Virus record (IMG/VR): IMGVR_UViG_3300020148_000032
DNA from: a virus
Lineage: Duplodnaviria; Caudoviricetes
DNA length: 64,000 nt
Reading direction: 5' to 3' (one strand)
In this document: piece by piece, positions 6,724 through 39,391 of the stretch
How positions within the stretch are numbered: the stretch's first letter is position 1
Layout: every line of letters starts with the position of its first letter
Notes under the pieces: model-generated
What the model saw: the letters and a program-made list of their open reading frames with translations, nothing else
Database searches by the model: none
What the model was told of the DNA's origin: nothing
Made by a program: the position numbers and the translations under genes

Positions 6724-8576
6724 TCTAATACACCTGCACTTCTTTTCCAGAAACCATCAGTGTTGTCTGAACACTGAATACTTATTTGCTGTTCAGTATC
6801 AATATCAATAGAAACAGTTTCCCCTACACAAGTTTGCGATTCTCTAGAAAGTATCCAAGTAAGAGGGCTTGTCAATTGAGGATTTAATGAATAAACCGTA
6901 ACAGTTGGCGTAACTTCTAGAATAACGTCTCCAGTGTTTACTATAGTCCCTTTTACAAGGTTTGTATTAGAGTCGTATGAAAGATTTTGTATAACTCCAG
7001 AACCATTATCTGGAAGTTCTATTGTAGATTTTTGTGGAACAATATAATAATTGATAGCAAAAAGAACTCCAACAGTGAACAATAGAGGGAAGAAGTTAGC
7101 AATTTTCTTTAAGATCTCAGTAGCAGACAATATTGGTTTAAAGATCATCCCTATAATAGGGATAGATGAAAGAATCTTTAGAATAAACATTAAAAGATTG
7201 AAGAAAATATTAACAAAGAACATATAAATATTAGTGATAAAAGCAAATGGGTTCTTTCTAGAGTTGGAATTATTTACTTTTGGCTTTGATCTAACGCTTT
7301 TCTTTGGCGCGCGACCTTTCGCATCAGGGTCTTCACCTTTTAATTCGGCTTTTATTTTATCCAAAAATGACATTTGAGAATTAACATCTGCAGGCTCTAA
7401 ATCTTTTTTGGTAAGAGATGGAAATTCTTGCATATCTTCAGGAATTTCTTCATCATCTTTTTGTCCAGAGAATAATTCTCTTTCAAGTTCATCTTCAAAG
7501 TCTTCATCATCTTCATCTAAGGCAGAATATTTTTCCTCTTGTAGTCTTGCAGAAGGAGTTTTGTTTTCTTCAGTTAATCCAGAAATGTATTTATCAAATT
7601 CATCATCTTCAAACTCTGTTGATATTGACATTTTTCTCGGCTCGCTAGAAGTTTCTTCATCGTCGGAGTCTTCTTCCTCATCAAAGTCCCAATTACTATC
7701 ATCTTCATCATTAGAATCTACATTTAATTGTGCGAGAATTTCAGCAAGCTCTTTATCTATTTCTTCTTCATCGGAATCATCTTCGTTATCCGAATCTTTA
7801 TCGTCAGATAAAGAGTTATCCTCGTCAGAGTCAAAAGAATCATTGTCAAGATTAAGTTTATCTAGAATTGCAGCTAAATCATCATCAGTAGATTCACCAT
7901 TTGAATCATCATCATTCGAAGAAACTTCTTCAACCTCAGGAATCATATTAATGTATTGTTCGATATCAAAATCATTATTTTCAGGTGAAGTTTCAATATT
8001 ATCATCAGGCAATTCTAGAGGTTCACCATTCATTGAATTTTCATCAATTTGAGGTAACGAATCTGTAGAGTAAGGATCGTCCTCACTTACTAGTACGAAT
8101 TCTTTATAATCGTCAGAGTCATTATATTCATCTGATGCATTAAATGTTACTGGTGTTGGAAGATCAAGTATTGGAGAATCCGGTAAAGAATGCTCTTGTA
8201 TTTTCTCTATTGCATTTTCCTGAATGTGTACTTCATCTTGAGATACCTTATTGAAAGGTATTGAATCATCATCATCATCAAAGAAAGAATTGCTAGATTG
8301 AGAGATAGACTTCTTGTAATTAAGCGGTTTTCCTAATGGTTTATTACCATTATTATTTCTAGACGAAGAATCTAATTGTTGATTCATTTGAACATCAGGA
8401 GATTTCGGTAAAGTATTTGTAAGAGGTTGCTCTTCAGGTAGACGAATAGGTCCGTTTTGAGAAATAGGAATATCTGGTAAAGATAGACCCTGATCAATAT
8501 CTGGAAGCTCGCTTTGGTCTCCTTTAGAATCTGATAAAGGATTTCTACCAGAGGATGGATTAATTGGAAGAGCCAA
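6720..8576 (-). CDS. Large acidic low-complexity membrane protein
   Basis: Asp/Glu-rich N-terminal 400 aa, hydrophobic helices near aa 445-515, C-terminal beta-rich domain. Confidence 0.8.
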   Translation of the reverse strand: MALPINPSSGRNPLSDSKGDQSELPDIDQGLSLPDIPISQNGPIRLPEEQPLTNTLPKSPDVQMNQQLDSSSRNNNGNKPLGKPLNYKKSISQSSNSFFDDDDDSIPFNKVSQDEVHIQENAIEKIQEHSLPDSPILDLPTPVTFNASDEYNDSDDYKEFVLVSEDDPYSTDSLPQIDENSMNGEPLELPDDNIETSPENNDFDIEQYINMIPEVEEVSSNDDDSNGESTDDDLAAILDKLNLDNDSFDSDEDNSLSDDKDSDNEDDSDEEEIDKELAEILAQLNVDSNDEDDSNWDFDEEEDSDDEETSSEPRKMSISTEFEDDEFDKYISGLTEENKTPSARLQEEKYSALDEDDEDFEDELERELFSGQKDDEEIPEDMQEFPSLTKKDLEPADVNSQMSFLDKIKAELKGEDPDAKGRAPKKSVRSKPKVNNSNSRKNPFAFITNIYMFFVNIFFNLLMFILKILSSIPIIGMIFKPILSATEILKKIANFFPLLFTVGVLFAINYYIVPQKSTIELPDNGSGVIQNLSYDSNTNLVKGTIVNTGDVILEVTPTVTVYSLNPQLTSPLTWILSRESQTCVGETVSIDIDTEQQISIQCSDNTDGFWKRSAGVLE

Positions 8577-8584
8577 TTTTACTC

Positions 8585-11233
8585 CTATTCTAGAATACTT
8601 GGATCAAATACTCCAAAGTCATAACTTTCAACACCTAAGAATTTTTCAATTGCTTGTTCAACTTTCCCGTTCTTGTCAGTTGTATAACCAGAATCAACAT
8701 AGTGTAACAGTTCAATTGCGTCAGCTTTTTCAAGAATACTTTCAGGCTCCGAATAAGAAACCTCAACCCCCTCAGGAGGCCAAACTTTCTTTTCCTCAGA
8801 TGAACCCTTCAAGCTTTTCATTTCTGAAATAGCATGAACATAATAAATATCGTCTTGAGAAAGAGAAAGACTATCATACTCAGCTGTAAAAATAGGGTAT
8901 TCTCCTGGTAATTTATTGTGGAGAGTACGAGGTAAAGCGCCTTTTACCCTATTAATATGATCTTCATTTCCAACAACCTTATGATAACGAATTCTTACTG
9001 GAAGCATTCCATTATCAGCAAGCACAAGAGGTCGTATACTATTCACTCTCGCCCCATAAGGGGTTTCACCAAATGAAGGCCTGAAAGTAAGATTAATAAT
9101 ATAAACAGAATTCTTTTCAAGAGTTTGTATAGGTTTGAACTCGCTAGTAGCGATCTCTTCTAATTCTTCAGGTACTCCATCAGCTCCAGAAATATACATG
9201 TTCTTGATCTTTTCCTGAGCGACAAATTTATCAATACCTTTAACGATATCGCGCGAAAGATTAGCTGATAAATATCCAGTTCCATCGTCAATAGTAATCA
9301 TCATACTCTTACCACCAGCGCGCCGAGTCTTTGAAATAATTTCTGTCACACTGCCAGCAATGTAAACATTAACAGTTTCTTTAGATTTGAGAAGGTTCTG
9401 AATAGTAATATTTCTCATTTTGCTAAGACCAGGGCCAGCCTTCGAAAGAGGATGATCAGTCAAATAAAGACCAATAACATTAGCCTCTTGCTTTAATTTT
9501 TCAACAAATGGGTACTCAGGAAGACCCTCAAGTTTAATAGAAGCTGATTCAGTGGTTTCACTCATTCCAAACATGTCAAAAAGGTCAGAACCCTTAGCTT
9601 CCTTCGATTTTGACTGGTTCATAATGACTGAAAGATTCTCAACGACCGCTTTTCGTGAAACTCCCATATTGTCAAACGCTCCAGCAAGAGCAAGGTTTTC
9701 ATAAATCTTTTTATTATTGATTCCTAGAGGAGTACAACGATTAATCAGATCTTGAACACTCTTATAATGTCCGTTTTTCTTTCTCTCTGTCACAATAATT
9801 TGAGCCATATCATTAGAAACAGCATTGATTCCACCAAGACCGTAAACGATATCAAAACCGCTGTTACCTGAATAGTCTGGAGAAACTTTTACTTCAGAAG
9901 TATTAATTTCAACGGAACCAACTTTAAGACCCATTCTTCGAGCTTCTTGAAGAAATGAGAGGATCTTATCCTTACTTCCAATATTTTGAGCAATAAGAGC
10001 GGCCATGAACTCTACAGGATAATTAGCTTTAAGATAGGCAGCTTGATAAGCGTTAATTCCATAAGCTACTGAGTGAGACTTATTAAAACCATACTTGGCG
10101 AATTCTGAGATTGTGTCCCAGAGAATATTCATTGCCTCTTCAGAATAACCATTCTTCTTTCCACCCTCGATAAACTTAGGCTTCATTTTCATCATTTTTT
10201 CAACGATTTTCTTACCCATAGCTTTTCGGAGGTCATCACCTTCTTGAAGGGTCATTCCAGCGATTTGGTTAGAAATTTGAAGAATTTGCTCCTGATAAAC
10301 AACCAAGTTCCATGTTTTTTCGAGAATTTTGTCAAGAGGGCTACCCACAAAATCTTTGTGAATAGGGGTTACTGGCTCTCTATTATTTTTACGGTCAGCA
10401 TACTTAATGTGTGATTGCATACCCATAGGCCCTGGGCGATAAAGAGCAGTTGTAGCAATAATGTCATCTACACTAGTTGGTTTAATTCTCTTTAACAAGT
10501 CTTGAACACCTGGGCTTGCAAGCTGGAACACACCGATAGTATCACCACGACCTACAAGATCAAGTGTCTTCTTATCTTTCATATCTCCGTGAATAATCTC
10601 AATCATGTTAGGAACTTTTTTACCTGACTTTTGAATATATTCAACAGTGTGTTGGATAAGGTCAACAGTATCAAGCCCTAAGAAGTCCATCTTAATGAGA
10701 CCAAGTGATTCACATTCCTCATACTTCCATTGAGTGATAACTCGATTATCAGACTCACGAACATGAAGAGGAATAACTGTATCGAGAGGTTTGCTACTAA
10801 TAACGATACCGCATGGATGAAGCCCAGTGGACTTGTTTCTACCTTCGATTTCTCGGGCACCTTCAATAATCTTTTGCCAGTATTCTTCAGCAGTAGCTGT
10901 CCTGAAGTCAGCACCTTCAGCGTAGCGGTCGCTTTTTGGATTGAAGATATCGTCAATCGTACATTCAACACCTTCGATAGGTGGCGGAATTAAAGCAGCA
11001 ATTTTGTTAGAAGCTGAGAATGGAATATTGTAAATAGTACACATTTCCTTGAATGCGCCCTTGGCTGCAAGAGTGTTAAATGTAACAATATTAGCAACGT
11101 TATCTTTACCATAAATCTCGGTAACATGCTCTAAGGTTCTATCTCTATATTCTGTATTAATGTCAGAGTCAACGTCAGGGTTAGACCCTGGTTTAATAAT
11201 GTCAATAGAAACAATTCTTTTTGTATTTGTCAT
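8585..11233 (-). CDS. dnaE: DNA polymerase III alpha, C-terminal part (catalytic palm, fingers, OB)
   Basis: PDVDSD, GLHPCGIVIS, GLIKMDFLGL, GVFQL, ALYRPGPM, VYQEQ, YGFNKSHSVAY, LKANYP; no PHP domain. Confidence 0.95.
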   Translation of the reverse strand: MTNTKRIVSIDIIKPGSNPDVDSDINTEYRDRTLEHVTEIYGKDNVANIVTFNTLAAKGAFKEMCTIYNIPFSASNKIAALIPPPIEGVECTIDDIFNPKSDRYAEGADFRTATAEEYWQKIIEGAREIEGRNKSTGLHPCGIVISSKPLDTVIPLHVRESDNRVITQWKYEECESLGLIKMDFLGLDTVDLIQHTVEYIQKSGKKVPNMIEIIHGDMKDKKTLDLVGRGDTIGVFQLASPGVQDLLKRIKPTSVDDIIATTALYRPGPMGMQSHIKYADRKNNREPVTPIHKDFVGSPLDKILEKTWNLVVYQEQILQISNQIAGMTLQEGDDLRKAMGKKIVEKMMKMKPKFIEGGKKNGYSEEAMNILWDTISEFAKYGFNKSHSVAYGINAYQAAYLKANYPVEFMAALIAQNIGSKDKILSFLQEARRMGLKVGSVEINTSEVKVSPDYSGNSGFDIVYGLGGINAVSNDMAQIIVTERKKNGHYKSVQDLINRCTPLGINNKKIYENLALAGAFDNMGVSRKAVVENLSVIMNQSKSKEAKGSDLFDMFGMSETTESASIKLEGLPEYPFVEKLKQEANVIGLYLTDHPLSKAGPGLSKMRNITIQNLLKSKETVNVYIAGSVTEIISKTRRAGGKSMMITIDDGTGYLSANLSRDIVKGIDKFVAQEKIKNMYISGADGVPEELEEIATSEFKPIQTLEKNSVYIINLTFRPSFGETPYGARVNSIRPLVLADNGMLPVRIRYHKVVGNEDHINRVKGALPRTLHNKLPGEYPIFTAEYDSLSLSQDDIYYVHAISEMKSLKGSSEEKKVWPPEGVEVSYSEPESILEKADAIELLHYVDSGYTTDKNGKVEQAIEKFLGVESYDFGVFDPSILE

Positions 11234-11247
11234 AGAAAAAGAACTCC

Positions 11248-12342
11248 TTATTTGTTAGATTGTGCAGCTAAAAGTTTTTGCAGTTTACTTAACTTAGTAA
11301 GAGATTCATTCATTGCAATCTCAAGATTGATTCGATAATCCATACCGTTACTCATCCTTGTGAGAGCAAGACCGAGTTCATTCATAAGAATATTCAAGCC
11401 TCTGTTTCCCAAGAGCTTCCGGGCAATCTCTTCTGGGTCATTAACTGGGAGTACTCCAATGAGGGAACTATCAACTTTAGCATTTGTGAGGACTAGGTTT
11501 CGTAAATCTTCATATAATTGTTCTGAAAGATCGCGCGCGCTGATTCCATCAGATGACGCTTCAGCAATAACAGTTAATACGTTAGTGAGACTTCTTGATG
11601 CAATGCTTTCAAGTAGTTTTCCACCGAATGTAGGAGAAAGATCTTCGTTCATTGAGACGATACCTTCTAGTGCAGATAAAGTATCTCGTACGGAGCCGCG
11701 GCCTAATCGAACTGCTTCCATGAGTTGTTCGTCAGTTGATTCGAGTGATTCCTTCTCGCGAATCACTTTGAGGAATTGAAGCATTTCCTCAGAACTGACA
11801 AGGTTGAATTTTCTTGATTGGATTCGAGACATAATTGTTGCGGGGATCTTTTCGATTTCTGTAGAACAGAGAATGAAAAGAGCAGGCATGTTCTTGTCTT
11901 CGATTGGGATGAGAAGTGAGTCAAAACCTGATTTGTGAATGTTGTGGATTTCGTCAAGAATCCAAATTTGACGTTTGACTGGTTGAGTAAGTCTTGCTTT
12001 TTGGACAATGTTTCTAATATCTTCAACACTACCGTTATTTGCCATTGAAATGTAGTTGACTCCAAGTTGGGTTCCATTATCTATAGCAATACATACTTCA
12101 CATTCGTTACATGGGCTTGAGTCTTTTGTTGGATTAAGACAGTTGATTGCTTTAGCGAGTAGTAATGCGCTGGAAGTTTTTCCACATCCGCGCGGACCAA
12201 AGAATCCATACGCGGTAGGGAGCTTATTTTGCGAAACAGCGGCTTTTAAAGAGCTGGCAATCTTTTGTTGACCGATTAATTCATTCCATGTTTTAGGTCT
12301 ATATTTCTTATAAAGTTCAACATGCCCCGCAGTTTCAGTCAT
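11248..12342 (-). CDS. dnaX: DNA polymerase III gamma/tau clamp-loader ATPase
   Basis: LYKKYRP, GQ, GPRGCGKTS, Zn module C..PC..C..C, ILDEIH, TIMSR, GSVRD. Confidence 0.93.
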   Translation of the reverse strand: MTETAGHVELYKKYRPKTWNELIGQQKIASSLKAAVSQNKLPTAYGFFGPRGCGKTSSALLLAKAINCLNPTKDSSPCNECEVCIAIDNGTQLGVNYISMANNGSVEDIRNIVQKARLTQPVKRQIWILDEIHNIHKSGFDSLLIPIEDKNMPALFILCSTEIEKIPATIMSRIQSRKFNLVSSEEMLQFLKVIREKESLESTDEQLMEAVRLGRGSVRDTLSALEGIVSMNEDLSPTFGGKLLESIASRSLTNVLTVIAEASSDGISARDLSEQLYEDLRNLVLTNAKVDSSLIGVLPVNDPEEIARKLLGNRGLNILMNELGLALTRMSNGMDYRINLEIAMNESLTKLSKLQKLLAAQSNK

Positions 12343-13297
12343 TATACTCCAACTTTCTTAGAATTTCATTGTCTTCTCTATGTAACAAAAAATCTGTTAT
12401 AGCTATTTTAACAAAATCTTTTCTAGAAACCCAATCGGACTCCCATATAAATATTAAATCTACACCATTGTTTTTACAAAGGTCAAATTTTAATGCGTGA
12501 TACTCAAGAGATGTTTTACCACAGCTTTTTAAAAGAAAATCATCGCTATGCCAATAATTCCCGTTATATTCTATCGCAATTTTTAAGTTGGAGAAATAGA
12601 AATCTACTTCATAAGGAGATATAACACTTCTGTTATATTGTGAGAACTCTAGCCCAAGATTATTAAAAAATGAAGATAACTCTTTCTCCCCAGCCGAACC
12701 CTTACATTTCGGACATGAATCGCCCCGATTAGTTCTCTTAGAGACAGTTGTTCTCCATATGAACGAACAGTCTGAGCATTTCCAACGAAAAGATTTGTTA
12801 CTTGACTTGTGAACTTCTAGAGGGTTAATATCTAATATTTCTTTTGCTAATCTAGAATCAAAGCTTTTCAAATCATTATAGCCTATAACGAGTCTTACTC
12901 CAGAACATACTGGGCAAGAATCTCCACGTTTTATTCTTTTCTGTAAATCAGAAGTCCATTGATATGTGCAACGAGAGCATACCCAATGTAAAATTTGTCT
13001 TTTAGAATAGACAATAAGACTTGGATTGTGAAAATTTTTATCTATTTCTTTTGACAATAAAGGGTATTGTGATTCTAGATCATTGAACCCTTTTAATATT
13101 TTTCGTCCAGAGCAATACGGACAAGGATTTTTAGAATTTATTCTACGCCTTACAGAAAGCAAATAAAATCCAAAGCATTTTTCACAAAACCATCTAGCTT
13201 TAAAATCACTCCCAAAAGTAAGAGTATTAATATTTCTTTCTTCTTCTATAAAGAATTTGGCAATGTGAGGATGTGTATTGAGAATACTTTCGTGCAC
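12335..13297 (-). CDS. Free-standing Zn-ribbon repeat / PD-(D/E)xK endonuclease (homing endonuclease-like)
   Basis: Repeated W.C..C...CP.C units; C-terminal EVDFYF..LKIAIEYNGNYWH; probable GTG start at 13297 (track gives 13369). Confidence 0.8.
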   Translation of the reverse strand: MHESILNTHPHIAKFFIEEERNINTLTFGSDFKARWFCEKCFGFYLLSVRRRINSKNPCPYCSGRKILKGFNDLESQYPLLSKEIDKNFHNPSLIVYSKRQILHWVCSRCTYQWTSDLQKRIKRGDSCPVCSGVRLVIGYNDLKSFDSRLAKEILDINPLEVHKSSNKSFRWKCSDCSFIWRTTVSKRTNRGDSCPKCKGSAGEKELSSFFNNLGLEFSQYNRSVISPYEVDFYFSNLKIAIEYNGNYWHSDDFLLKSCGKTSLEYHALKFDLCKNNGVDLIFIWESDWVSRKDFVKIAITDFLLHREDNEILRKLEYND

Positions 13298-13305
13298 TTT
13301 AATTA

Positions 13306-14316
13306 CTATGATCCCCAACATACAGAGAAAGTCTTTGGCGAGCCGTCTTTTATTCCAGAGGTGTTCCACCCTATTCCAGAAATGCGATAGTTATACCCAT
13401 TTAGTAAAGTCATACTATAGTCACCTGTTTGAATAATTGCGCGACCCCCTCCAGGTATGTAATTTGTCGCTAAATCTTGCAAACTTACATCAACATACCA
13501 ACCAACAAAGAATGAGGTGGCATTATGTGAAGTGACTGTTATGTCTTTACATACATAATAACTTGGTGTAGGTGTAGTACTTGTGTAAGTAAAAGTAATA
13601 TTAGACCCAGTTGGTGGTAGCGGTGGATTAGGGGTCCCGTAATGACAAAGAGTATATGTTCTTGATTGATTGATAGAAACTTTAGCGTTGTTTCCATTTC
13701 CAGTAATAGTATAAATATTATTGACTGGACCGCTTAAAGTATAACCGTGTGATAATTGATATCCAGATGTAGCTCCATTATATGGATAATCATTAAGGTT
13801 AAAAGTCACACTCCAGTCAATAGCACCATTATTTGTTGTGGAAATAGTAGTGTTAACACAGAACTGCTTAGGGACCGTTTGGCTCCATGCATAAGTGACA
13901 GTAAATGGTGGACCTGAAGGTGGAGTCCACGTATAGTCTATACCCCATCCATTAAGTGTAAGAAGTATTGAAGTAACTGTTGAACCGCTAGCGAAAGATG
14001 TTGGCGAAGTCCAAGTTGAACTTGTTCCAATTGTTCCGGTAAAAGTTGTAGTCGTTGATCCGTTAACGAAAACTAATTGCAAAGAATGATTATAGCAACT
14101 TGTTGGTATTCCAGTAATTGTAGGAAAATTACTTGCATTAAGACTTATCGAGAGAGTGTTTTCAGTGCATCTTTCGGAAGAGGTAGTTGTAATACTGTTG
14201 TTTTTAATTCCTATATTTGTTGCACTTGCTACTAAAATGACAAAAGATATAAGGGAAAGAAGAATAAACGTGATAATGATGAAAGACATTGATCTGTTTT
14301 TTAAAAAATTTTTCAT
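13306..14316 (-). CDS. Secreted Thr/Ser-rich protein with CBM2-like domains
   Basis: N-terminal hydrophobic anchor; two repeats with FC.N..I...DW.V.F and terminal F..C; Pro-rich linkers. Confidence 0.6.
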   Translation of the reverse strand: MKNFLKNRSMSFIIITFILLSLISFVILVASATNIGIKNNSITTTSSERCTENTLSISLNASNFPTITGIPTSCYNHSLQLVFVNGSTTTTFTGTIGTSSTWTSPTSFASGSTVTSILLTLNGWGIDYTWTPPSGPPFTVTYAWSQTVPKQFCVNTTISTTNNGAIDWSVTFNLNDYPYNGATSGYQLSHGYTLSGPVNNIYTITGNGNNAKVSINQSRTYTLCHYGTPNPPLPPTGSNITFTYTSTTPTPSYYVCKDITVTSHNATSFFVGWYVDVSLQDLATNYIPGGGRAIIQTGDYSMTLLNGYNYRISGIGWNTSGIKDGSPKTFSVCWGS

Positions 14317-14327
14317 TATCTACCTCC

Positions 14328-14834
14328 TTATTCTTCCTTTTTCTCCTCGAGTTGAGATACCCTATATTTGTACCAAGAGTACGAGAAATATAGACCGAAG
14401 AGAGCAAATATAAATGACCAAAAATATATACTTCTAATAAAAATCATCCAGTCTGGTACTGGAATGTGTAACACAATTTTACCATAGGCGTCTGATGGAT
14501 CGACAAACCATCCATCTTCAAAATCATTGTTATCCCCTTGGGTCTTAAAGTATCCTTCATCGTTGATTTCAATAATTCTGTGAACAACATTACAACGGGA
14601 ACAATCAATGCCAGGCGGTGAGTATACCACTATGTCGCCGATCTCATACGATTGTTCTTTTATAGAAACGATAATATCGCCATTTTCATAGGTAGGGAGC
14701 ATGGAGGTTCCACTAACGATAGTGATTTGGAAAAAACCACCCCATGCTGCAGGCCATAATAGAAAGACAATAAAGCCGAGAAGCGCCCAGCGTAAGGCTG
14801 AGCGCATCCCGGCGATAACTTTGTTTCTAGACAT
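14328..14834 (-). CDS. Signal peptidase I, SipW/ER-type
   Basis: SGTSMLPT, GDIVVY, VVHRI, TQGDNN (Ser-His type). Confidence 0.88.
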   Translation of the reverse strand: MSRNKVIAGMRSALRWALLGFIVFLLWPAAWGGFFQITIVSGTSMLPTYENGDIIVSIKEQSYEIGDIVVYSPPGIDCSRCNVVHRIIEINDEGYFKTQGDNNDFEDGWFVDPSDAYGKIVLHIPVPDWMIFIRSIYFWSFIFALFGLYFSYSWYKYRVSQLEEKKEE

Positions 14835-14857
14835 TAAAGCATAGACTTTTCTACTTT

Positions 14858-15289
14858 TTAGTTGTCATAGATTACTACTGAAACGGAAGCAACATCGTCA
14901 GTGTCAACAGCACCTGAAAGAGCAGCATTAACAGTTGCTCCACCAACAGTACCGTTTACAGTTCCGAGTGATGCACCAGCAGAATCAGCAACAACTACTT
15001 GGTATTCAAGTCCATTACAAGCAGGGAGAACGTTGCTTAATACAACTTCATTAACAGTGAAAGTTTGTGATGCTGCGACATAAGTTGGAGTTGAGAATCC
15101 AACAGCAATGTCATTACTCGCACCTGCAGGTTGACAGCTAGCAGTTACTGAAGTACCTGCAGCTAAATCGTGGTTAGCTTCAATTCCAAGGCTTACAGCA
15201 GAAGCAACAGCAGCACCAGTAAGAGCAATACCCATACCAATAGCAGCTACAAATATGCCCTTACGGGATTTCTTGTTTTCTTTTTCCAT
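14858..15289 (-). CDS. Small secreted pilin/TasA-like protein (putative SipW substrate)
   Basis: Signal peptide ending AVASA; Ala/Val/Gly-rich beta protein with two Cys; adjacent to the SipW-type gene. Confidence 0.55.
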   Translation of the reverse strand: MEKENKKSRKGIFVAAIGMGIALTGAAVASAVSLGIEANHDLAAGTSVTASCQPAGASNDIAVGFSTPTYVAASQTFTVNEVVLSNVLPACNGLEYQVVVADSAGASLGTVNGTVGGATVNAALSGAVDTDDVASVSVVIYDN

Positions 15290-15381
15290 TTTAAATTACT
15301 CCATTAATTAATGTTTATTTTTGCCATTGCCCGTATGGCGGCAAGTGTTAAAAATGTCACACTAATCAATATCGGGAAAAT

Positions 15382-16842
15382 TTAAGACTTTACAATATCT
15401 CCTACGTTTAGCTGATGAACATACTGAGTTGTTATAGAATCGTTATCCAAATTTATAACATCTTTTTGATCACTAACAATTAAATCCTCAAAAGTCCCAT
15501 CGTCATAATGAACACGCGCAGTAGCTCCACGACCAGCAGACAAGAATCTCTCAAAGATAAGATCGTGTTTAATAGGGTCAAGTTCAGAAATACCTAACTC
15601 GTAAGCATGAATAGAACCCCCAACACTACCTCGTCCTACACCAATAGGATAAGCAAGAGCCTTTCCATGTTCATCGAGAGTAGAGTAGTTCTCTTTAGTC
15701 CAGTTCAAGTATTCATAAACAACTAGCATATATCCAATAAAATCTGAAGAATAAATAACTTCGAATTCATGCTTGTTGCGCCTAATTGCTTCTTCCTGAA
15801 CCTCTTTGCTAGAGTTTCCATAGCGCTCTTTAAAACCCTTGTTAATAAGGTACTGATAATATTCCACTTCATCTTTAAACTGTGAGGGAATAATAGGTTT
15901 TGGCTTCAGATGAGCGTCAAAATCAAGCTTTACGTCTTGAGCCATTTCAGCAATTACAAGAGTGTTTTTCAAGGCTCCAGGAAAATCCTGCTCTGGGAAT
16001 AAAGCATTCATTTCCTCAGTGCTTTTAAGATAATACTCGTTCCCATTAAAGGCGAACCTTTTTCCACCCTGATCATAAGGTAGCTCTGACATTCGTGAAC
16101 CCGATTGACTACAAAGCATTTCTTCGTGATGAATAGCATCTTCTTTGTGAGCATAATGAGAGTCATTAGTGGCTAAAAGAGGAATCTCTAATTTCTTGGA
16201 GAGTTCAAGTTGCTTTGGGAGAAGCTTTCTTTCAAGATCAATGTTCATATTATGATCCATGATTTCAATAAAGAATCTGTCTCCAAACACTTCTTTAAGT
16301 CTGTTAGCGTGAGAATATGCTTTTTCGTCTTGCCCTAATAGAAAACGTGTATTGATTTCACTTGAAGGGCAGCCTCCCCCTACTATAAGTCCTTCTGAAT
16401 GCTCAGCAAGCATTTCAAAGTCCATACGAGGTTTTGAATAAACATGCTCTGGCTGATAAGAAAGAGTTGATAACTTGAAGAGGTTCTTCATTCCTTCTTG
16501 ATTGATTGCCCATAACGTTAAATGGGTAAATGCTCCATTACCAGAAACATCATTTTGAACTTTTTGTCCATTAGGGCCATAGAAAATAGGTCTTTTCACT
16601 TTAGCCCCTTCTGGGTTTTCAGGAGCAAAATACGCTTCAATTCCAGGAATAGGAATAATTCCAGCAGAATTCGCTTTTCGTACTAAATCATAAACTCCAA
16701 AAGTGTTCCCATGGTCAGTAATACCAAAGCCTTTTTGTCCAAGTTTTATCACTTCATCAATGTACTCTTGTGGCTTAGAGAAACCATCAAGGATACTATT
16801 GTGAGTGTGATTATGAAGGGGGACATATTCAGACATTGACAT
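15382..16842 (-). CDS. dnaE: DNA polymerase III alpha, N-terminal part (PHP domain and N-terminal palm)
   Basis: LHNHTHNSILDG, ITDHG, GIEAY, HLTLWA, ATNDSHY, GRGSVGGS, DLIFERFL, then a 47-aa non-DnaE tail. Confidence 0.95.
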   Translation of the reverse strand: MSMSEYVPLHNHTHNSILDGFSKPQEYIDEVIKLGQKGFGITDHGNTFGVYDLVRKANSAGIIPIPGIEAYFAPENPEGAKVKRPIFYGPNGQKVQNDVSGNGAFTHLTLWAINQEGMKNLFKLSTLSYQPEHVYSKPRMDFEMLAEHSEGLIVGGGCPSSEINTRFLLGQDEKAYSHANRLKEVFGDRFFIEIMDHNMNIDLERKLLPKQLELSKKLEIPLLATNDSHYAHKEDAIHHEEMLCSQSGSRMSELPYDQGGKRFAFNGNEYYLKSTEEMNALFPEQDFPGALKNTLVIAEMAQDVKLDFDAHLKPKPIIPSQFKDEVEYYQYLINKGFKERYGNSSKEVQEEAIRRNKHEFEVIYSSDFIGYMLVVYEYLNWTKENYSTLDEHGKALAYPIGVGRGSVGGSIHAYELGISELDPIKHDLIFERFLSAGRGATARVHYDDGTFEDLIVSDQKDVINLDNDSITTQYVHQLNVGDIVKS

Positions 16843-17908
16843 TATTTAATCCTCCGGTAAGTTTTTCAAGGTTTTTAACATGTTTAGGAGTAAGAGGAAT
16901 TAAAAACTGTTTGAAATCACGGACACTATCTATAATAATATTATTCTTTACAGACGCTTTGTTCTTCATTGGAATAACTCCAAAAAGTATTCTCTTCCTC
17001 GTGTCTGGTAAAGACACACCTATCATTTTACCAACTTGATCATTTACTCTCTTCGAATCTACGATGACTGGGATAATTGGAGCATTTTTTACTCTAAAAC
17101 TAGGTATTATTTTATTAGAAAGTCCAATCAACCACGGGTTAACATTTCTTCCCTGATGAGATAAATATACTTTCTTAATCCCGCTGGCCGCGAACTTTTG
17201 CTTAAATATAACTGGATAGAATGAGAAAGCGTAGGTTTCTCCATCAACGTCTCCCCAAGCTAATACATATTTTTCTTTAGCTTTTTCGTCTACAATGAAA
17301 GACCAACCACTTTTACGAACGTTTTCAATAATTAAATCAATCGATTTTGCATCATATTCTGGCATTTTCTTTTTCAAGAATGAGTCCTTAGGTCTCTTTG
17401 CGTAAAGCATAAAGAATACCCCTATAGATGAAAGGGTAGAAATAATGATAGCCCAACCATATGGGATTACCGTTACAAGAGTATAAGAAATAATGAAGAA
17501 GAACACTTCAGACAATATGAGCGATATCCATCTCGAAGATGATGTATTGAAAAAATAACTTATGCTTAATGAAACTGTATAAAAGAACAAGACAGAGAAT
17601 ACCCACACTGAACTAAGTTGTCCGGTAGAATCAATAACTGAACCCGTTTGGAAAAATAGTGAAATTATATACGAAAGGATAAAGAGTGAGAATAGAGCTT
17701 TAATAATAGCTCGAGCATTAAAAAACAAAAATATAGCAATAAATATTCCACTAAGAGAAACAATTGGAACCCACCAACGTGATGGATCATTAACAGCAGT
17801 AATTCCCGAGAGGAGAATAATAGTTACTATAAAACCTGTAAATAAATTTCCATTTCTTTCAGCTAGATCTTTCACATCACTTTTGAAAGTGTTCATAAAA
17901 TTTTTCAT
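16829..17908 (-). CDS. Multi-pass membrane protein
   Basis: About 6 hydrophobic segments in the first 170 aa. Confidence 0.8.
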   Translation of the reverse strand: MKNFMNTFKSDVKDLAERNGNLFTGFIVTIILLSGITAVNDPSRWWVPIVSLSGIFIAIFLFFNARAIIKALFSLFILSYIISLFFQTGSVIDSTGQLSSVWVFSVLFFYTVSLSISYFFNTSSSRWISLILSEVFFFIISYTLVTVIPYGWAIIISTLSSIGVFFMLYAKRPKDSFLKKKMPEYDAKSIDLIIENVRKSGWSFIVDEKAKEKYVLAWGDVDGETYAFSFYPVIFKQKFAASGIKKVYLSHQGRNVNPWLIGLSNKIIPSFRVKNAPIIPVIVDSKRVNDQVGKMIGVSLPDTRKRILFGVIPMKNKASVKNNIIIDSVRDFKQFLIPLTPKHVKNLEKLTGGLNNVNV

Positions 17909-17999: not shown

Positions 18000-18071
18000 G
18001 CCTCTGGAGCTCGAAGGCAGAGCAAAGGATTCTAAACCCTTGGTGTGCGGGTTCGACTCCCGTCAGAGGCA
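18000..18071 (+). tRNA. Amber suppressor tRNA (anticodon CUA)
   Basis: Acceptor GCCTCTG/CAGAGGC+A, D stem GCTC/GAGC, anticodon arm AAGGA-TTCTAAA-CCCTT, T arm GCGGG-TTCGACT-CCCGT. Confidence 0.9.
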
Positions 18072-18106
18072 CGATGAAAATATCATCAAAACTAAGGAGA
18101 ATTATT

Positions 18107-31331: not shown

Positions 31332-31406
31332 TGGAAGCGGCTACCGGGTTCGAACCGGTGTTGACGGTTTTGCAGACCGTTGCCTAAACCACTCGGCCAA
31401 GCCGCC
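31332..31406 (-). tRNA. tRNA-Cys(GCA)
   Basis: Cloverleaf; ACGGT-CTGCAAA-ACCGT; CCA encoded. Confidence 0.93.
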
Positions 31407-31411
31407 ACAAG

Positions 31412-31484
31412 AGCCTTCTATCGGAATCGAACCGATCACCTTCCCATTACGAGTGGGACGTTCTACCAGCTGAACTAAGAAGGC
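31412..31484 (-). tRNA. tRNA-Thr(CGT)
   Basis: TCCCA-CTCGTAA-TGGGA. Confidence 0.92.
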
Positions 31485-31545
31485 ACTATAATCTTTTTGA
31501 GGAACTATGTTCATATTTTTTAAAACCTCTTAAACTGAGGTTTAG

Positions 31546-31617
31546 AGCCCCTGACAGGATTCGAACCTGCGACCTGCGCTTTAGGAAAGCGTTGTTCTTC
31601 CGCTGAACTACAAGGGC
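31546..31617 (-). tRNA. tRNA-Arg(CCT)
   Basis: ACGCT-TTCCTAA-AGCGC. Confidence 0.9.
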
Positions 31618-31750
31618 ACAACATTGTTTTCTAAAAAATATTGGAGCTAGCGCCAATATTTCCAATTGGAGCTTACCCTGATCGTGGGCATATGTTCTTT
31701 TTTCATCTTTCATCATGATCAGTGATGAAAGTTATTACACCACACTAGCG

Positions 31751-31837
31751 CGGAGTTGGTGGGATTCGAACCCACGGTCCTTTTAAGGGGACACTCGTTT
31801 TCGAGACGAGCACCTTCAGCCTCTCAGTCACAACTCC
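31751..31837 (-). tRNA. tRNA-Ser(CGA)
   Basis: CTCGT-CTCGAAA-ACGAG; long variable arm. Confidence 0.92.
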
Positions 31838-31955
31838 ATCAAATAAATAACAGGTTAGCCGCACTAGGTTACCATTCATTACATTTTACCATGTACTTTC
31901 AGCCACGGACTCATTCCCAAGAGGTAATTCGACCTGTTATTTATTTTTAAATATT

Positions 31956-32021
31956 ATCCCTTGAGCCAATCGCTCACTCCCTTGTTAAAGGCAAGGTGTT
32001 CTTCATATTAAACTAAAGGGA
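31956..32021 (-). pseudogene. Degenerate tRNA-like element (TTT anticodon, non-canonical T loop)
   Basis: CCTTG-CCTTTAA-CAAGG arm; TGAGC-GATTG-GCTCA arm. Confidence 0.45.
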
Positions 32022-32179
32022 AAAAGAACTCGATATGCCCCCAATGATTATGCAAACCATTACACTTAAGACTGCTTAAACAATCTTCAGGAATCGAACC
32101 TGTCCTCATTGTCTAGAGACAAACCTCGTTCTTTAGATTACCGTATACCGAGTTTTAAGCCTTCGGCAACATTTATCCG

Positions 32180-32254
32180 TACCTGGGATGGGATTCGAAC
32201 CCACACTGTATAGGACCTAAACCTATTGCCTCCTGCCAATTGGGCTACCCAGGC
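32180..32254 (-). tRNA. tRNA-Leu(TAG), short variable loop
   Basis: ATAGG-TTTAGGT-CCTAT. Confidence 0.9.
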
Positions 32255-32419
32255 ATTTACTCTCGAAAGAGTAATAAGTTACTATCACGATAAACGCCAC
32301 GCTATATTCAACACGTAATAACCATCTCGTTCTTATGGAATTACAAATTTAATATAGTTCTCCGCATTCTCTATTACTAGCATAATGACTACTTTAAAAG
32401 TCATTATCGTGACAATAAG

Positions 32420-32492
32420 TGCCCTATCAGGGATTCGAACCCCGGCCTCGACCGTTAAGAGCGGCCTGCTCTAACCACTGAGCTAATAAGGC
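32420..32492 (-). tRNA. tRNA-Lys(CTT)
   Basis: GGCCG-CTCTTAA-CGGTC. Confidence 0.9.
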
Positions 32493-32575
32493 ATGATTAT
32501 CTTACATTGTTTCACTATTTAATTTGTCACAAGTATTACTTGTAACCCATAACAAATGACTTGTCAAATAAAACT

Positions 32576-32791
32576 TTAGTTTTCTTCAAGTTTTTCAAGA
32601 AACATATCAACAGAAACACTAGAATGCTCTGCAATTGCGTCCATCAATGCTTCAACTTGTTCAAGAGTCGCATCTGTTACAAGTAATTTCAAATTCCACG
32701 CAGCCATTTTGTTATCCTCACATTTCAAGATAGAATTTAAATCCAAGTCGGATATCAGCCTTATTCTTGTCAATAAAATAATTAATGACAT
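32576..32791 (-). CDS. Small hypothetical protein (likely start MAAWNL near 32707)
   Basis: GAGGA RBS before an internal ATG. Confidence 0.5.
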   Translation of the reverse strand: MSLIILLTRIRLISDLDLNSILKCEDNKMAAWNLKLLVTDATLEQVEALMDAIAEHSSVSVDMFLEKLEEN

Positions 32792-32826
32792 GATTAATAC
32801 TAAGTATGAGATTCCTCTCTATTATG

Positions 32827-32913
32827 CGGAAGTGACAGGATTTGAACCTGCGGTAGAGTTTCCCCTACACTCGCTTTCCAGGCGAGCACCTTAAGCCACT
32901 CAGTCACACTTCC
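32827..32913 (-). tRNA. tRNA-Ser(GGA)
   Basis: CTCGC-CTGGAAA-GCGAG; long variable arm. Confidence 0.92.
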
Positions 32914-32917
32914 ATAA

Positions 32918-33005
32918 TACCCGCAGAAGGATTCGACCTTCACTCATTCGCAATGATGAGCATCGCCGATTAAAGCAGGGTGTTTACCCATTCCACCATG
33001 CGGAT
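32918..33005 (-). pseudogene. Degenerate Leu-like tRNA (weak anticodon stem)
   Basis: Acceptor ATCCGCA/TGCGGGT, Leu-type D arm, long variable arm, T loop missing one base. Confidence 0.5.
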
Positions 33006-33038
33006 ACATATTTATACTACCATATCTCATCAGTATAG

Positions 33039-34448
33039 TCAATTAAGATATTTCTTTTTTTTTATGAAATTATCAAGAATTTCAAGGGCTTCTTTCTTAG
33101 TTTTAAAATTACCCCTATATTGCATTTCTCTAAATTGAGAAATAATTTCTCCAACCCAAGGCCCTGGTTTCTTTGAAGAACACTCAAGAATATCTTTACC
33201 CATTACAAAATCAGGTTCATATGAAGTATATATACCTTCAAGGGCAGCCTTTTGAGAAACTTCTATAATTTCTTTATCATCAATAACCTTACCGTAAGAA
33301 TACAAACGTTCGAAAGTGAACCCTCTTGAACGAAGTTCAAATGCTAATTTCTTACGAAGATAAGTAGTTGACGCATCAGAAGACTTGAACTTGGCAAGAT
33401 CTTCAGCAATATCTTGCTTATCTCTCCCGATAAGAGAGATTGAATAAAAATCTTTTCGATCCTTTTGATTCATATTTCTAGCAATAAGAGCAGAACCAAT
33501 AATATCCTTATCCTTTTTTAAATGAGTAATTTCATTAATTCTTTTTTGAACCATTTCTGAAGATAAAGATTCTTTAAGTCCAGGGCTGATATCATCCCAA
33601 CCTGATTCTTGAAGAGCAATAACTCCATTAAGAGGTTTAGTGCTCTTTGTGAAGAATTTTTCCCATTCGCCTTGGACCCTTTCAGTTGAAAGATGTTCAT
33701 ACTCTGAACGTATAGATTGAGCGAGCTCCCTTGTATCAGGAGCCCAACGAAGGTTAAAGCGTGCAGCAAATTGGAAGCCTCTAAGAACTCTTAAAGGATC
33801 TTCAGAAAATTTACCACTTACATGACGGAGGACACGTCTATTAAGGTCACTAAGACCTCTAGACGGATCTATAATCATGTGATTTACATGGTCATACATC
33901 ATTGCATTAAGAGTAAAGTCTCTTCTTTCAGCAGCTTCAAGAAGTGTCATTTCAGTATCCATTACTACTTCGAAAGATCTGTGCCCAGCACCAACACGGT
34001 TTTCTTTACGAGGTACACTTACGTCAAGGTCGGTAACCCCTCTTCCGGAGACTTTAAGTACTCCAAATTCTTTACCCACTTCGTCAACAATGTAACCTTT
34101 ATTTTTTAAAAATTGAGCAAGGGAATCAATAGTTGTTCCGTGGACTTCAATGTCAATGTCTTTATTTGAAGAACCTGTAATGGAATCACGAACAGCACCA
34201 CCGACAATAAGAGGGGTTCCCTCTTCTTGAATTTCAGTAATAATATTATCTATTGTTTCTGGAAGTTTCATGATAAACGGTCTAACATTTTCTTTCCCAT
34301 ATTCGTTCGCTCTTTCTTGATAAAGAGATGGGTTATTAATCATGTCTTTTTGTTCTGGAGTGAATTCAAAATCTTCAAAAGGGCATGCTCTCTTTCGTGC
34401 GTTACAAAGAGAAAATGAGCCTTTAGAGTTAAGGTGATATCGTGTCAT
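33039..34448 (-). CDS. cca: CCA-adding tRNA nucleotidyltransferase with N-terminal HCC tag
   Basis: VGGAVRD, KDIDIEV, RRDFTLNAM, F.EDPLRVLRGFQFAARF, ERV.GEW.K, PGPWVG. Confidence 0.92.
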   Translation of the reverse strand: MTRYHLNSKGSFSLCNARKRACPFEDFEFTPEQKDMINNPSLYQERANEYGKENVRPFIMKLPETIDNIITEIQEEGTPLIVGGAVRDSITGSSNKDIDIEVHGTTIDSLAQFLKNKGYIVDEVGKEFGVLKVSGRGVTDLDVSVPRKENRVGAGHRSFEVVMDTEMTLLEAAERRDFTLNAMMYDHVNHMIIDPSRGLSDLNRRVLRHVSGKFSEDPLRVLRGFQFAARFNLRWAPDTRELAQSIRSEYEHLSTERVQGEWEKFFTKSTKPLNGVIALQESGWDDISPGLKESLSSEMVQKRINEITHLKKDKDIIGSALIARNMNQKDRKDFYSISLIGRDKQDIAEDLAKFKSSDASTTYLRKKLAFELRSRGFTFERLYSYGKVIDDKEIIEVSQKAALEGIYTSYEPDFVMGKDILECSSKKPGPWVGEIISQFREMQYRGNFKTKKEALEILDNFIKKKKYLN

Positions 34449-34508
34449 AAGTAGTGCACTCCTTCAAAAGTTTTTCTAAAGAGAAAACGAGTACACTTTC
34501 TTCTTTAA

Positions 34509-34586
34509 TGGTAGCCCTGACTGGATTCGAACCAGTGATCTCTTCTTTATGAGGGAAGCGCTTTCGACCGACTAAGCTACAGGGCC
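34509..34586 (-). tRNA. tRNA-Met/Ile2(CAT)
   Basis: CTTCC-CTCATAA-AGAAG; CCA encoded. Confidence 0.88.
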
Positions 34587-34602
34587 ATTATTTTGTGATG
34601 TG

Positions 34603-34685
34603 TGCCTAAAGCGGGACTCGAACCCGCACGCCCTTTCGGGCACGGCGTTCTTAGCGCCGCACGTCTACCATTCCATCATTCAGGC
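34603..34685 (-). tRNA. tRNA-Leu(AAG)
   Basis: CGGCG-CTAAGAA-CGCCG; long variable arm. Confidence 0.92.
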
Positions 34686-34785
34686 ATTGAGGATAAGGTG
34701 AGTTTTAATTCATATTCTCCTCAAAATATGAAAACCACAATGTTAGTGGCTCTCGATGTTGACATTTTATTATCCAGAAATATTG

Positions 34786-34998
34786 TCAACATGTAAAAAT
34801 TATCGGCGGATATTTTCCACCAATGTGAACTTGATAAGCAGTTCTATACAAAGAATCATCCGAACCAGAAGAGTTCAAATAATCTTTCATTCTTTTCACT
34901 ATCTTTTTTAAATTAAAGTGAGACGGTTGTGAAGAACTACCCATATAACCCAATGCTACTATTTTAGCTTGAGAATTCATCATTTCATAAGCATTCAT
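34786..34998 (-). CDS. Small hypothetical protein
   Basis: AAGGAGA RBS. Confidence 0.6.
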   Translation of the reverse strand: MNAYEMMNSQAKIVALGYMGSSSQPSHFNLKKIVKRMKDYLNSSGSDDSLYRTAYQVHIGGKYPPIIFTC

Positions 34999-35021
34999 TA
35001 TAATTCTCCTTTTAATAAATG

Positions 35022-35092
35022 CTGCCCGACTAGGATTCGAACCTAGACCTGTTGAGTCAGAGTCAAATATGCTGCCATTACACTATCGGGCA
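35022..35092 (-). tRNA. tRNA-Gln(CTG)
   Basis: TTTGA-CTCTGAC-TCAAC. Confidence 0.9.
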
Positions 35093-35101
35093 ATAGTTGG
35101 T

Positions 35102-35359
35102 TTACTTCTGATGCAAACCAAGAACAGTGATATCTCCAGTGAGAGTATCAAGAGTACAATCAACCGCGATTTCACAAAAAGCAAAACGAGCGGTTTCGGA
35201 CTTGTTAAGAAGTTCCACAATCTCTTCCTCAGAAATTGGCGCTCCGCCTTCAGCTTGATTCATAGAATAATGAATCATTTCGGCGCGCTCCTTATTAGAT
35301 CCAGCGGAGCCGCTAAGATAATAAACAAATGGAAGCTTCATGGGAAACCCTTTCAACAA
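35102..35359 (-). CDS. Small hypothetical protein (paralog of 35380..35607)
   Basis: C-terminus DCTLDTLTGDITVLG resembles KCSIDLDTGDIDILG. Confidence 0.7.
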   Translation of the reverse strand: MLKGFPMKLPFVYYLSGSAGSNKERAEMIHYSMNQAEGGAPISEEEIVELLNKSETARFAFCEIAVDCTLDTLTGDITVLGLHQK

Positions 35360-35379
35360 GAATAATGAACTATTCTATT

Positions 35380-35607
35380 CTAATTGGAAAACCCTAAAAT
35401 GTCAATGTCTCCAGTATCAAGATCAATAGAGCATTTTAATTCAACTTCTTGAAAAGAGTAATAACTTGACTTTTGTCGAATAAGTTCATAAAGTTCATCC
35501 TCAGTAAGATGATAATTAGGGTCTTTCGCAAGTTGCTCGTGAAGAATTTCAGAAAGTTCCCTGTGCGTATAATCATCATGAATAGTATGAGTAAACTTTA
35601 TTTTCAT
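35380..35607 (-). CDS. Small hypothetical protein
   Basis: Paralogous to its neighbour. Confidence 0.7.
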   Translation of the reverse strand: MKIKFTHTIHDDYTHRELSEILHEQLAKDPNYHLTEDELYELIRQKSSYYSFQEVELKCSIDLDTGDIDILGFSN

Positions 35608-35635
35608 TGGGACCTTCTATTCTGTTAAAATATAG

Positions 35636-35709
35636 TGTGACTAGACGGACTTGAACCCTCAACCACTGGTACCACAAACCAGCGCTCTACCAATTGAGCT
35701 ATAGCCACC
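35636..35709 (-). tRNA. tRNA-His(GTG), A73
   Basis: CTGGT-TTGTGGT-ACCAG. Confidence 0.88.
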
Positions 35710-35807
35710 ATCGTTACTTATTTCTTGCAACAATCTCCACCGCAAGAACAAGTGCAATCTTCTTTATCTTTATACATATTTCACCACCTTCATATGAATA
35801 ATATGAG

Positions 35808-35880
35808 AGCGAGTGACCAGATTCGAACCGGCGTTAACAGTTTGGAAGACTGTAGTACTAGGCCTCTGTACGACACTCGC
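35808..35880 (-). tRNA. tRNA-Gly(TCC) copy 1
   Basis: ACAGT-CTTCCAA-ACTGT. Confidence 0.9.
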
Positions 35881-35919
35881 AATATGTCAATATTCTATCA
35901 AGAATATCAACAAGTTTTA

Positions 35920-36093
35920 TTAATCATCAATAACAACAGAAATCATCGCCTTAGCAGAAGGATTATCGGAATGCTTTTCGAGAACCTCGACCTTATGTTC
36001 GGTAGCCTCAGCAAAAGTATCGTCATAAGAATAGACGACCCAATAGTTTCCATCAAAGAAAAGAACCATAAACTTACCAAAATGATTAAACAT
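35920..36093 (-). CDS. Small hypothetical protein (57 aa)
   Basis: AAGGA RBS, MFNHFGKFMVLFFDGNYW...; below the ORF-track cutoff. Confidence 0.55.
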   Translation of the reverse strand: MFNHFGKFMVLFFDGNYWVVYSYDDTFAEATEHKVEVLEKHSDNPSAKAMISVVIDD

Positions 36094-36335
36094 GTGAATC
36101 CTTATTTTAATAGTAGTGATGAGTTATTTCATAATAACACTATATGATAAGAATGTCAATATACTCAAAGCGCGCAGGAAGTTGAACAATTAGCGCTTCA
36201 TGTTCAACCTTTCCCGCGCCTTTAAACGGAATTTTTGTTATTCTGTAGATTAATTCTAACTACAACCCACTTTATGATGAGGGCTCGCCGTGATATCCAT
36301 ACACGGTCTCGAAGGGATACATACATATCCCGAAG

Positions 36336-36406
36336 CTGGAGTACTAGGATTCGAACCTAGACTAACTGATCCAAAGTCAGGGGTGCTGCCATTACACTAT
36401 ACTCCA
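36336..36406 (-). tRNA. tRNA-Gln(TTG)
   Basis: CCTGA-CTTTGGA-TCAGT. Confidence 0.9.
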
Positions 36407-36445
36407 AAGTTTAATGCATAATTATTAATTATATCAAGAAAAAAG

Positions 36446-36520
36446 TCTAGATAGAAGGATTCGAACCTTCGACTCCTCGGATCCAAACCGAGTACCCTGG
36501 CCAAACTGAGCTATATCTAG
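36446..36520 (-). tRNA. tRNA-Pro(TGG)
   Basis: CTCGG-TTTGGAT-CCGAG. Confidence 0.88.
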
Positions 36521-36739: not shown

Positions 36740-36812
36740 TGAATCTAGAGGGACTCGAACCCGCAACCTCTTCCGAGTCAAGGAAGCGCTCTACCAATTG
36801 AGCTATAGATTC
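36740..36812 (-). tRNA. tRNA-Val(GAC)
   Basis: CTTCC-TTGACTC-GGAAG. Confidence 0.88.
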
Positions 36813-39378: not shown

Positions 39379-39391
39379 TCGTTATCATTCG

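Follow-up and report, generated by a model that had tools for sequence, protein, structure and literature searches.

An intein is usually thought either to splice or to vanish precisely, and reports of retained relics are rare. Here we describe a gene for DnaE, the alpha subunit of DNA polymerase III (Pol III), that is divided in two in a stretch of 64,000 nucleotides of viral DNA (Duplodnaviria; Caudoviricetes; IMG/VR record IMGVR_UViG_3300020148_000032; hereafter, the window). Several described systems come close to it. Natural split inteins such as gp41-1, NrdJ-1 and IMPDH-1 (Dassa et al. 2009, PMC2677866), and those of Npu and Ssp DnaE, have their two parts, an acidic N piece and a basic C piece, encoded at the broken ends of a gene whose halves share a strand; this charge pattern is described in PMC2677866. 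In the cyanobacterial split DnaE, as far as the account in PMC2677866 goes, an active intein sits at an integration point far from the catalytic aspartates and ligates the products of distant loci into one protein. In fractured genes, active split-intein parts flank a free-standing gene for a Vsr-like or GIY-YIG homing endonuclease that separates the halves (Dassa et al. 2009, PMC2677866). In the intein-free, endonuclease-split genes (nrdA of Aeh1 and gp43 of T4-related phages) a replication enzyme consists of two non-covalent polypeptides, and what PMC2677866 says of their breaks includes no report of an intein-derived docking domain. Domesticated or non-splicing Hint domains, such as the degenerate intein of yeast HO (bioRxiv 10.1101/2020.01.20.913210), the bacterial intein-like (BIL) domains and hedgehog, have lost standard splicing and were kept for a host function; they retain the whole Hint fold and usually some cleavage chemistry.

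The dnaE locus of the window resembles each of these in part. It shares with the natural split inteins a Hint-type predicted fold, a break in the canonical loop between N- and C-intein, and complementary charges on the two pieces, again at the broken ends of same-strand gene halves. Unlike them, it has only the middle ~60 residues of the fold, lacks Cys1 and block A, the block B His, block F and the terminal HN, and also occurs unbroken inside unsplit polymerases; as the splicing motifs are absent from the module, no splicing would be expected, unlike in inteins of the gp41-1 and Npu type. Like the cyanobacterial DnaE, it is a C-family replicative polymerase in two genes with intein-type ends. 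The likeness to fractured genes lies in a gene with DUF4379 and Vsr-like domains between the halves; unlike in those genes, an endonuclease lies there in no relative examined, where a DnaX-like gene recurs and others have TnpB-like genes or nothing. As in the split nrdA and gp43, the enzyme would work as two non-covalent polypeptides, but the break is inside a conserved Hint-like module, and compared with HO, BIL and hedgehog this module is half a fold that would act as a clasp in the palm. The locus would thus behave like a split intein for association only, in a layout resembling that of fractured genes, and lacks the defining features of both: its halves do lie on one strand, but it has no split-intein catalytic residues, and the endonuclease is between the halves in this element only.

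We consider it likely that this DnaE consists of two polypeptides whose break lies in a ~60-residue half-Hint insertion domain of the palm, free of splicing chemistry, and that the halves are held together non-covalently by strand complementation.

The divided dnaE gene and its relatives

The window is part of a ~437 kb contig of a giant phage-like element, and its relatives are on contigs of 174-727 kb, several of them in IMG/VR. The N half of DnaE (486 residues; 15382..16842, minus strand) comprises the PHP domain (Pfam, E 5e-38) and the first part of the palm, with the GRGS motif and the FERFL arginine inside. The C half (882 residues; 8585..11233, minus strand) comprises the remaining palm, the fingers (DNA_pol3_finger, E 2.7e-48), a helix-hairpin-helix (HhH) region (HHH_6, E 3e-19) and a C-terminal OB-like region, and contains the PDVDSD and KMDFLGL motifs. 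The two together thus have the PHP, palm, fingers and HhH parts of a C-family DnaE (Pol III alpha), with the palm split between them. The profile PF07733 (DNA_pol3_alpha) is covered at positions 4-99 by the N half and at positions 100-260 by the C half (E 2.5e-39), so that the break, at position 99/100 directly ahead of the PDxDxD aspartates, is exact at the profile level.

Unsplit DnaEs read FERFLNPERxSxPDxDxD across this point, with the spacing fixed at 12 residues. In the window, the N half terminates in FERFLSAGRG and a 47-residue tail, followed by a TAA stop. The SAGRG junction motif (15526..15540, minus strand) takes the place of NPERx directly ahead of the module, and the tail (A440-S486; 15385..15525, minus strand) is the N-side piece of the predicted half-Hint module, with five short beta strands. 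The first 16 residues of the C half form a leader, MTNTKRIVSIDIIKPG (11186..11233, minus strand), a basic strand predicted to complete the module. It is followed by SNPDVDSD (11162..11185, minus strand), the catalytic aspartate motif that opens the body of the C half and fits S.PDxDxD of the unsplit enzymes. A first-pass annotation, made from the letters of the window alone, had placed the split just before the catalytic aspartates with this tail and leader, and its coordinates and motifs were correct.

The C half has its own ATG and an AAGGAG ribosome-binding site, which shares nucleotides with the stop codon of the preceding gene, and the gap between the halves measures 4148 bp with five open reading frames (ORFs). 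The whole arrangement was 100% identical on contigs from two sequencing runs that were independently assembled, so it is not an assembly artefact, a worry voiced in the first-pass annotation. It is hardly credible that the split is an artefact of any kind, or that an intron, frameshifting or stop-codon readthrough repairs it in the RNA. The element does encode a transfer RNA (tRNA) with the anticodon CUA, and in one relative (L052, below) the halves overlap in different frames. Against this stand the two identical assemblies, the N-half stop, which is TAA and not a suppressible TAG, the 4.1 kb with five ORFs between the halves, the C half's own ribosome-binding site and start, and the Rfam search of window positions 8000-17500, in which no family matched at E up to 1. 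A promoter and terminator scan of the locus gave counts equal to the shuffled expectation and was uninformative.

The search of relatives for the same break that had been proposed at the outset found it in >100 N halves, in giant elements and in cultured phages. These N halves, at 55-68% identity, were of equal length and kept the tail. In an alignment of 34 of them the tail residues D448, G449, E452, S457, H476 and G481 were invariant, as were G437, R438 and G439 of the junction, whose G and R were invariant across all divergent groups. Twenty-nine C halves shared the leader consensus M..KKIxSIxVIKPG ahead of S.PDxDSD. The two pieces were opposite in charge: the tail segment after the GD motif was net negative in 97% of 92 sequences, and the leader was net positive in 29/29.

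The nearest DnaEs of cultured phages were <40% identical to that of the window. Among cultured phages, phiST and phi19:2 of Cellulophaga share the split, their halves being adjacent genes (gp044 and gp045 of KC821621), whereas in DAC22 of Bacteroides the gene (DAC22_252) is unsplit and its contiguous insertion has diverged. These data bear on the idea that the halves never reassemble, because the gene is a decaying pseudogene or because each acts separately, which we regard as very unlikely. Nothing beyond the split itself speaks for it, whereas both halves are intact and strongly conserved ORFs across hundreds of lineages, the palm domain itself is divided between them, and the cultured Cellulophaga phages with the same split are viable.

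Some N fragments differed at their ends. In P0042, P0049 and P0078 the tail was longer by 60-100 acidic, Pro-rich residues ending in LSELxxIPF, a terminus that could be a sliding-clamp-binding motif. Two distant N fragments (P0256 and P0269) stopped right after ...SMPD, inside the catalytic motif, and had in common an unrelated tail of ~45 residues (..NNSGHN..GYTTDxG..WL.G.RD); they may represent another kind of break at nearly the same place.

The module also occurs in one piece. An exhaustive profile search recovered ten unsplit DnaEs of 1248-1788 residues (P0163, P0165, P0167, P0178, P0196, P0207, P0210, P0212, P0214 and P0288), all with FERF[LI]S.GRG and then a contiguous insertion of 55-62 residues ending in G just before S.PDxDxD. 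Its success shows that the blank result of an earlier word-index search for unsplit tail-bearing forms was a limit of sensitivity. A further candidate, the DnaE of Streptomyces phage Nanodon, was rejected: its apparent tail was an over-extended tblastn alignment, and the enzyme has no insertion. In one alignment, the split tails matched the first ~45 residues of the contiguous insertion and the leaders matched its last strand. Tail and leader thus make up a single insertion domain, and the cut between them falls in the turn that separates its last two strands.

To relate the split and unsplit forms, a tree was built from the N-terminal 420 columns of 60 rows by a quick method, with support from the Shimodaira-Hasegawa approximate likelihood ratio test (SH-aLRT) only. 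One clade (98% support) took in every split form, every unsplit form that has the insertion and six unsplit forms that lack it. Within it, at least 4-5 changes between the split state and the unsplit state with the insertion fell on well-supported branches. The contig L052, syntenic with the unsplit L050, has the halves as adjacent ORFs with a 14-nucleotide overlap in different frames (L052:9382-9395), read as GAT GAA GAA AAT TAA in one and ATG AAG AAA ATT in the other. A single insertion or deletion in this A-rich linker could accordingly convert the split form into the unsplit one or the reverse; a one-base change, or possibly a ribosomal frameshift, would fuse the halves of L052. Since the module is unbroken in unsplit DnaEs and the two states interchange, it is best described as an insertion domain of a DnaE subfamily and is not necessarily the relic of an intein that was already split. 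The first-pass reading of tail and leader as a remnant of a split intein thus retains the half-Hint predicted fold and loses the need for a prior split.

Predicted fold and missing splicing residues

The AlphaFold model of the N half of the window had a mean predicted local distance difference test score (pLDDT) of 90.4, and the strands of its tail (441-445, 451-455, 459-464, 469-474 and 483-485) had values of 83-89. In a model of a 130-residue fragment of the unsplit P0178, the insertion was predicted at pLDDT 85-90, and the equivalent of the leader formed a 12-residue strand (74-85) directly after the last strand of the tail. The P0178 insertion model was compared with 48,161 representative PDB chains with VIA-align, a search independent of Foldseek. 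Inteins, hedgehog or BIL domains made up 26 of the top 27 matches. The mini-intein of Pyrococcus horikoshii PolII (5bkh) was aligned at Z 8.7 with a root-mean-square deviation of 1.8 A over 56 residues (chain 73-138 of 170), and gp41-1 (6riz) at Z 8.5 with 24% identity (chain 43-103 of 127), spanning the tail/leader junction. Residues 50-98 of the Npu DnaE N-fragment (4lx3_A) matched model residues 25-73, and this N-fragment ends where the tail ends. Taken with the span of the gp41-1 match, this puts the DnaE break within a few residues of the loop in which natural split inteins are broken and endonucleases inserted. Foldseek searches against PDB and against the viral models of BFVD likewise gave inteins and the Hint superfamily as nearly all top matches.

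Judged from these models, the module would be equivalent to the latter half of an N-intein joined to the first C-intein strand. This would be the central half of the Hint fold, matched to inteins at Z 8.7-4 without a significant sequence match. The matches cover the same part of the fold that had been named when the resemblance was first noted. The YxDDG and KKIxSI motifs of the module also look like YKITLEDG and KKILKIE, which we take to be the corresponding stretches of gp41-1.

The residues that splicing needs were missing, as the first-pass annotation had reported for Cys/Ser1, TxxH and the terminal HN. The matched Hint region begins at about intein residue 43, so there is no block A, and the first residue of the tail varies (A, S, N, D, P or H). 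At the place of the block B TxxH the tail has VSDQK, in which the Ser is invariant (SxxK) and the His is replaced by Lys or Arg. Blocks F and G are absent: the leader ends in KPG (or AG, or SG) just before S.PD, and HN was found in 0/29 leaders. A Ser (SNPD) does follow the leader in the +1 position of Cys, Ser or Thr, but the same Ser is conserved in DnaEs without any insertion and so is not diagnostic. Covalent joining of the halves by trans-splicing with an unusual chemistry would fit the intein-like fold and this Ser. The lack of the block A, F and G regions and of the block B His, the variable first residue, a leader ending in G and not HN, the small size of the module (63 residues) and its retention inside unsplit enzymes make such splicing very improbable.

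True inteins were found elsewhere in the same genes. Many relatives of the N half (P0019, P0050, P0054, P0061, P0085 and P0122-P0124) carry genuine inteins (CF...VHN|S) at GVGRG|SVGGS, 35 residues upstream of the break. Some inteins at this GRG|S site carry a TnsA-like endonuclease domain (PF08722), and further inteins occur downstream in C halves.

Several observations weigh against reading the module as a Hint-derived clasp. Profile-profile comparison (hhalign) of the tail with the family's own inteins was not significant (8 columns at the GD motif, P 0.018), nor was that of the whole module (P 0.034, in another register). Pfam searches of tails and contiguous insertions at E up to 10 matched no Hint family and gave weak hits to DrmE_C, Tudor and E1-E2 ATPase only, and sequence searches of PDB (phmmer and profile hmmsearch) returned no inteins. 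The Hint assignment comes from a homologue's model; over the 130-residue fragment, this homologue is 49% identical to the window in the N half and 40% in the C half. Its best Z of 8.7 is barely above the usual best background score for small domains, and the case rests on the family-wide enrichment of matches. Finally, the unsplit polymerases, which need no clasp, retain the module, so it may have another primary role.

The tail and leader could instead be a lineage-specific beta insertion that clasps the halves and does not descend from an intein, its Hint shape arising by convergence or from a bias of the predictor toward known folds. The Pfam, PDB and profile-profile results would agree with such an origin, and so would the ease with which small beta domains reach Z 7-8 by chance and the recurrent weak matches of tails to the unrelated DrmE_C. 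This family of the DISARM protein (PF24957) was matched over its first 50 positions by 4/8 tails (those of the window, at 15385-15540 on the minus strand, and of L003, L009 and L015), with a best E of 4e-4, below the family cut-off. We nevertheless regard a non-intein origin as unlikely. The Hint superfamily dominates both the VIA-align matches and the top Foldseek matches in two libraries, the break coincides with the site of natural split inteins, a conserved Ser, a residue typical of the +1 position, comes right after the module, and true inteins occupy other sites of the same genes. In addition, a larger Cys-initiated form occurs at the same site. A pattern search for FERFLxPER followed by Cys found it on a 79.8-kb viral contig (L057), where the N half has an 80-residue Cys-initial tail and the C half, 8 nucleotides later, has a 32-residue leader before SLPDIDID. 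The best Pfam match of residues 26-66 of this tail was Intein_splicing (PF14890; positions 53-95), weak at E 0.061, and the same residues aligned to the tail profile of the window in the same register, also weakly (P 0.065). Weak as each of these links is, they fit the register of the structural matches and point to a series of sizes at a single site.

Less probable still is that the main job of the module is something other than clasping, such as docking a DnaX-like clamp loader, the clamp or DNA, the split being merely tolerated in a loop. Its retention in unsplit relatives, the invariant His and the GD motif, which have no assigned intein role, and the DnaX-like gene that is always adjacent in the giant-element clade all fit this explanation. 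Nothing ties the module to any partner, however, and neither the unsplit L050 nor L052, with its halves in adjacent genes, has a DnaX-like gene beside dnaE. Such a job would also be compatible with a clasp.

The strong conservation, the opposite charges and the one-domain form in unsplit relatives argue for a non-covalent clasp. As to its descent, the following history is, in our judgement, evenly balanced between true and false: an intein ahead of the catalytic aspartates lost its ends and its chemistry but stayed as a permanent half-Hint domain of the palm, and, since two chains can re-form this half fold at the former split-intein loop, the gene was cut there, and possibly rejoined, several times independently, giving two-subunit replicases held together by a dead intein.

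Genes between the halves

The interval of 4.1 kb with five genes, a homing-type endonuclease among them, had been read from the sequence in the first instance and was borne out by ORF, Pfam and PHROG matches. From the N half onward, all on the minus strand, it contains a 143-residue ORF with a hydrophobic N-terminal stretch (14858..15289), a 168-residue S26/S24 signal-peptidase-like ORF (14328..14834; Pfam S24 E 1.7e-5, S26 E 2.1e-5), a 336-residue ORF (13306..14316), the endonuclease-like gene and a DnaX-like gene. The 143- and 336-residue ORFs had no match in Pfam or PHROG. The endonuclease-like gene (344 residues; 12335..13369) is free-standing and encodes three DUF4379 zinc-finger stretches and a Vsr-like nuclease (Pfam DUF4379 E 7e-30, Vsr E 0.005; PHROG HNH/homing endonuclease E 3e-36 and 1e-30). 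Its end overlaps the start of the DnaX-like gene by 8 nucleotides (12335-12342). The latter (364 residues; 11248..12342) encodes an AAA+ clamp loader (Pfam DNA_pol3_delta2 E 2.7e-25; PHROG clamp loader E 9e-53).

Related giant elements at 42-67% identity (L003-L010 and L014-L020) likewise had the DnaX-like gene between the N half and the C half, an order that probably serves the co-expression of replisome parts. In L011-L013 the N half and the DnaX-like gene were present and no C half lay within 10 kb, so the halves can be far apart; in L011 and L013 the DnaX-like gene is followed instead by an anaerobic ribonucleotide reductase (NrdD). The other four genes of the interval were between the halves in none of the relatives examined (L003-L020) and appear to be later insertions. 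Homologues of the endonuclease in L007 and L008 sit ~2 kb upstream of the N half, and tblastn at 1e-4 did not match the block of the 143-, 168- and 336-residue ORFs to one of similar appearance in L050. The analogy to fractured genes drawn in the first-pass annotation is therefore only partial: the halves on one strand and the endonuclease between them fit it, whereas in relatives the endonuclease is absent from this place and the DnaX-like gene is what recurs.

TnpB/Cas12f1-like genes (PF07282, E ~1e-13) were found in the gaps of two other split loci, between the N half and the DnaX-like gene in L012 (L012:11590-13131, minus strand) and between the DnaX-like gene and the C half in L018 (L018:13038-14396, plus strand). 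Mobile genes appear to accumulate in the gaps of the split locus.

Elsewhere in the window, ARAGORN called 55 genes: 54 for tRNAs, one of which reads TAG (anticodon CUA, 18000-18072), and one for a transfer-messenger RNA (20615-20959). More than 50 of the tRNA genes form an array at 31332-46297.

Proposed assembly of the polymerase and its implications

The insertion domain follows the FERFL helix of the palm and precedes its PDxDxD strand. In the arrangement that we propose, the acidic tail would give it five short strands and the basic leader one long strand. Steered by charge, the leader strand would dock on the sheet of the tail, in the way that natural split inteins associate, and so rebuild both the half-Hint domain and the palm. 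In DnaE structures, the GRGS motif and the FERFL arginine are assigned to nucleotide-triphosphate binding, and the carboxylates of PDxDxD and KxD are the metal-binding aspartates. The N half would then carry the nucleotide-binding residues and the C half the metal-binding aspartates. With the active-site residues divided in this way, the site would be complete only after docking, and activity would need reassembly of the halves.

A full-text literature search, of incomplete coverage, returned no account of the module, nor of a phage DnaE split at this site. New here are the unbroken module of unsplit relatives, the repeated switching between split and unsplit forms, the order N half, DnaX-like gene, C half, the longer Cys-initiated form of L057 and the cultured phages with the module.

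A compact, charge-steered heterodimerisation tag that does not splice could be useful in protein engineering. If the proposed reading is true, half of the Hint fold can exist as a stable unit, and the self-folding of such a unit bears on the proposed origin of the Hint fold by duplication. It would also be a natural case of protein splicing decaying to plain non-covalent assembly, and the family offers a testable natural model both for the decay of a split intein to a protein-protein clasp and for the fission of an essential gene without a lethal intermediate. Across many phage lineages, cultured ones included, an intein relic appears to have become fixed in the active-site region of an essential replicase, where it seemingly acts as the module through which the two subunits of the polymerase dock.

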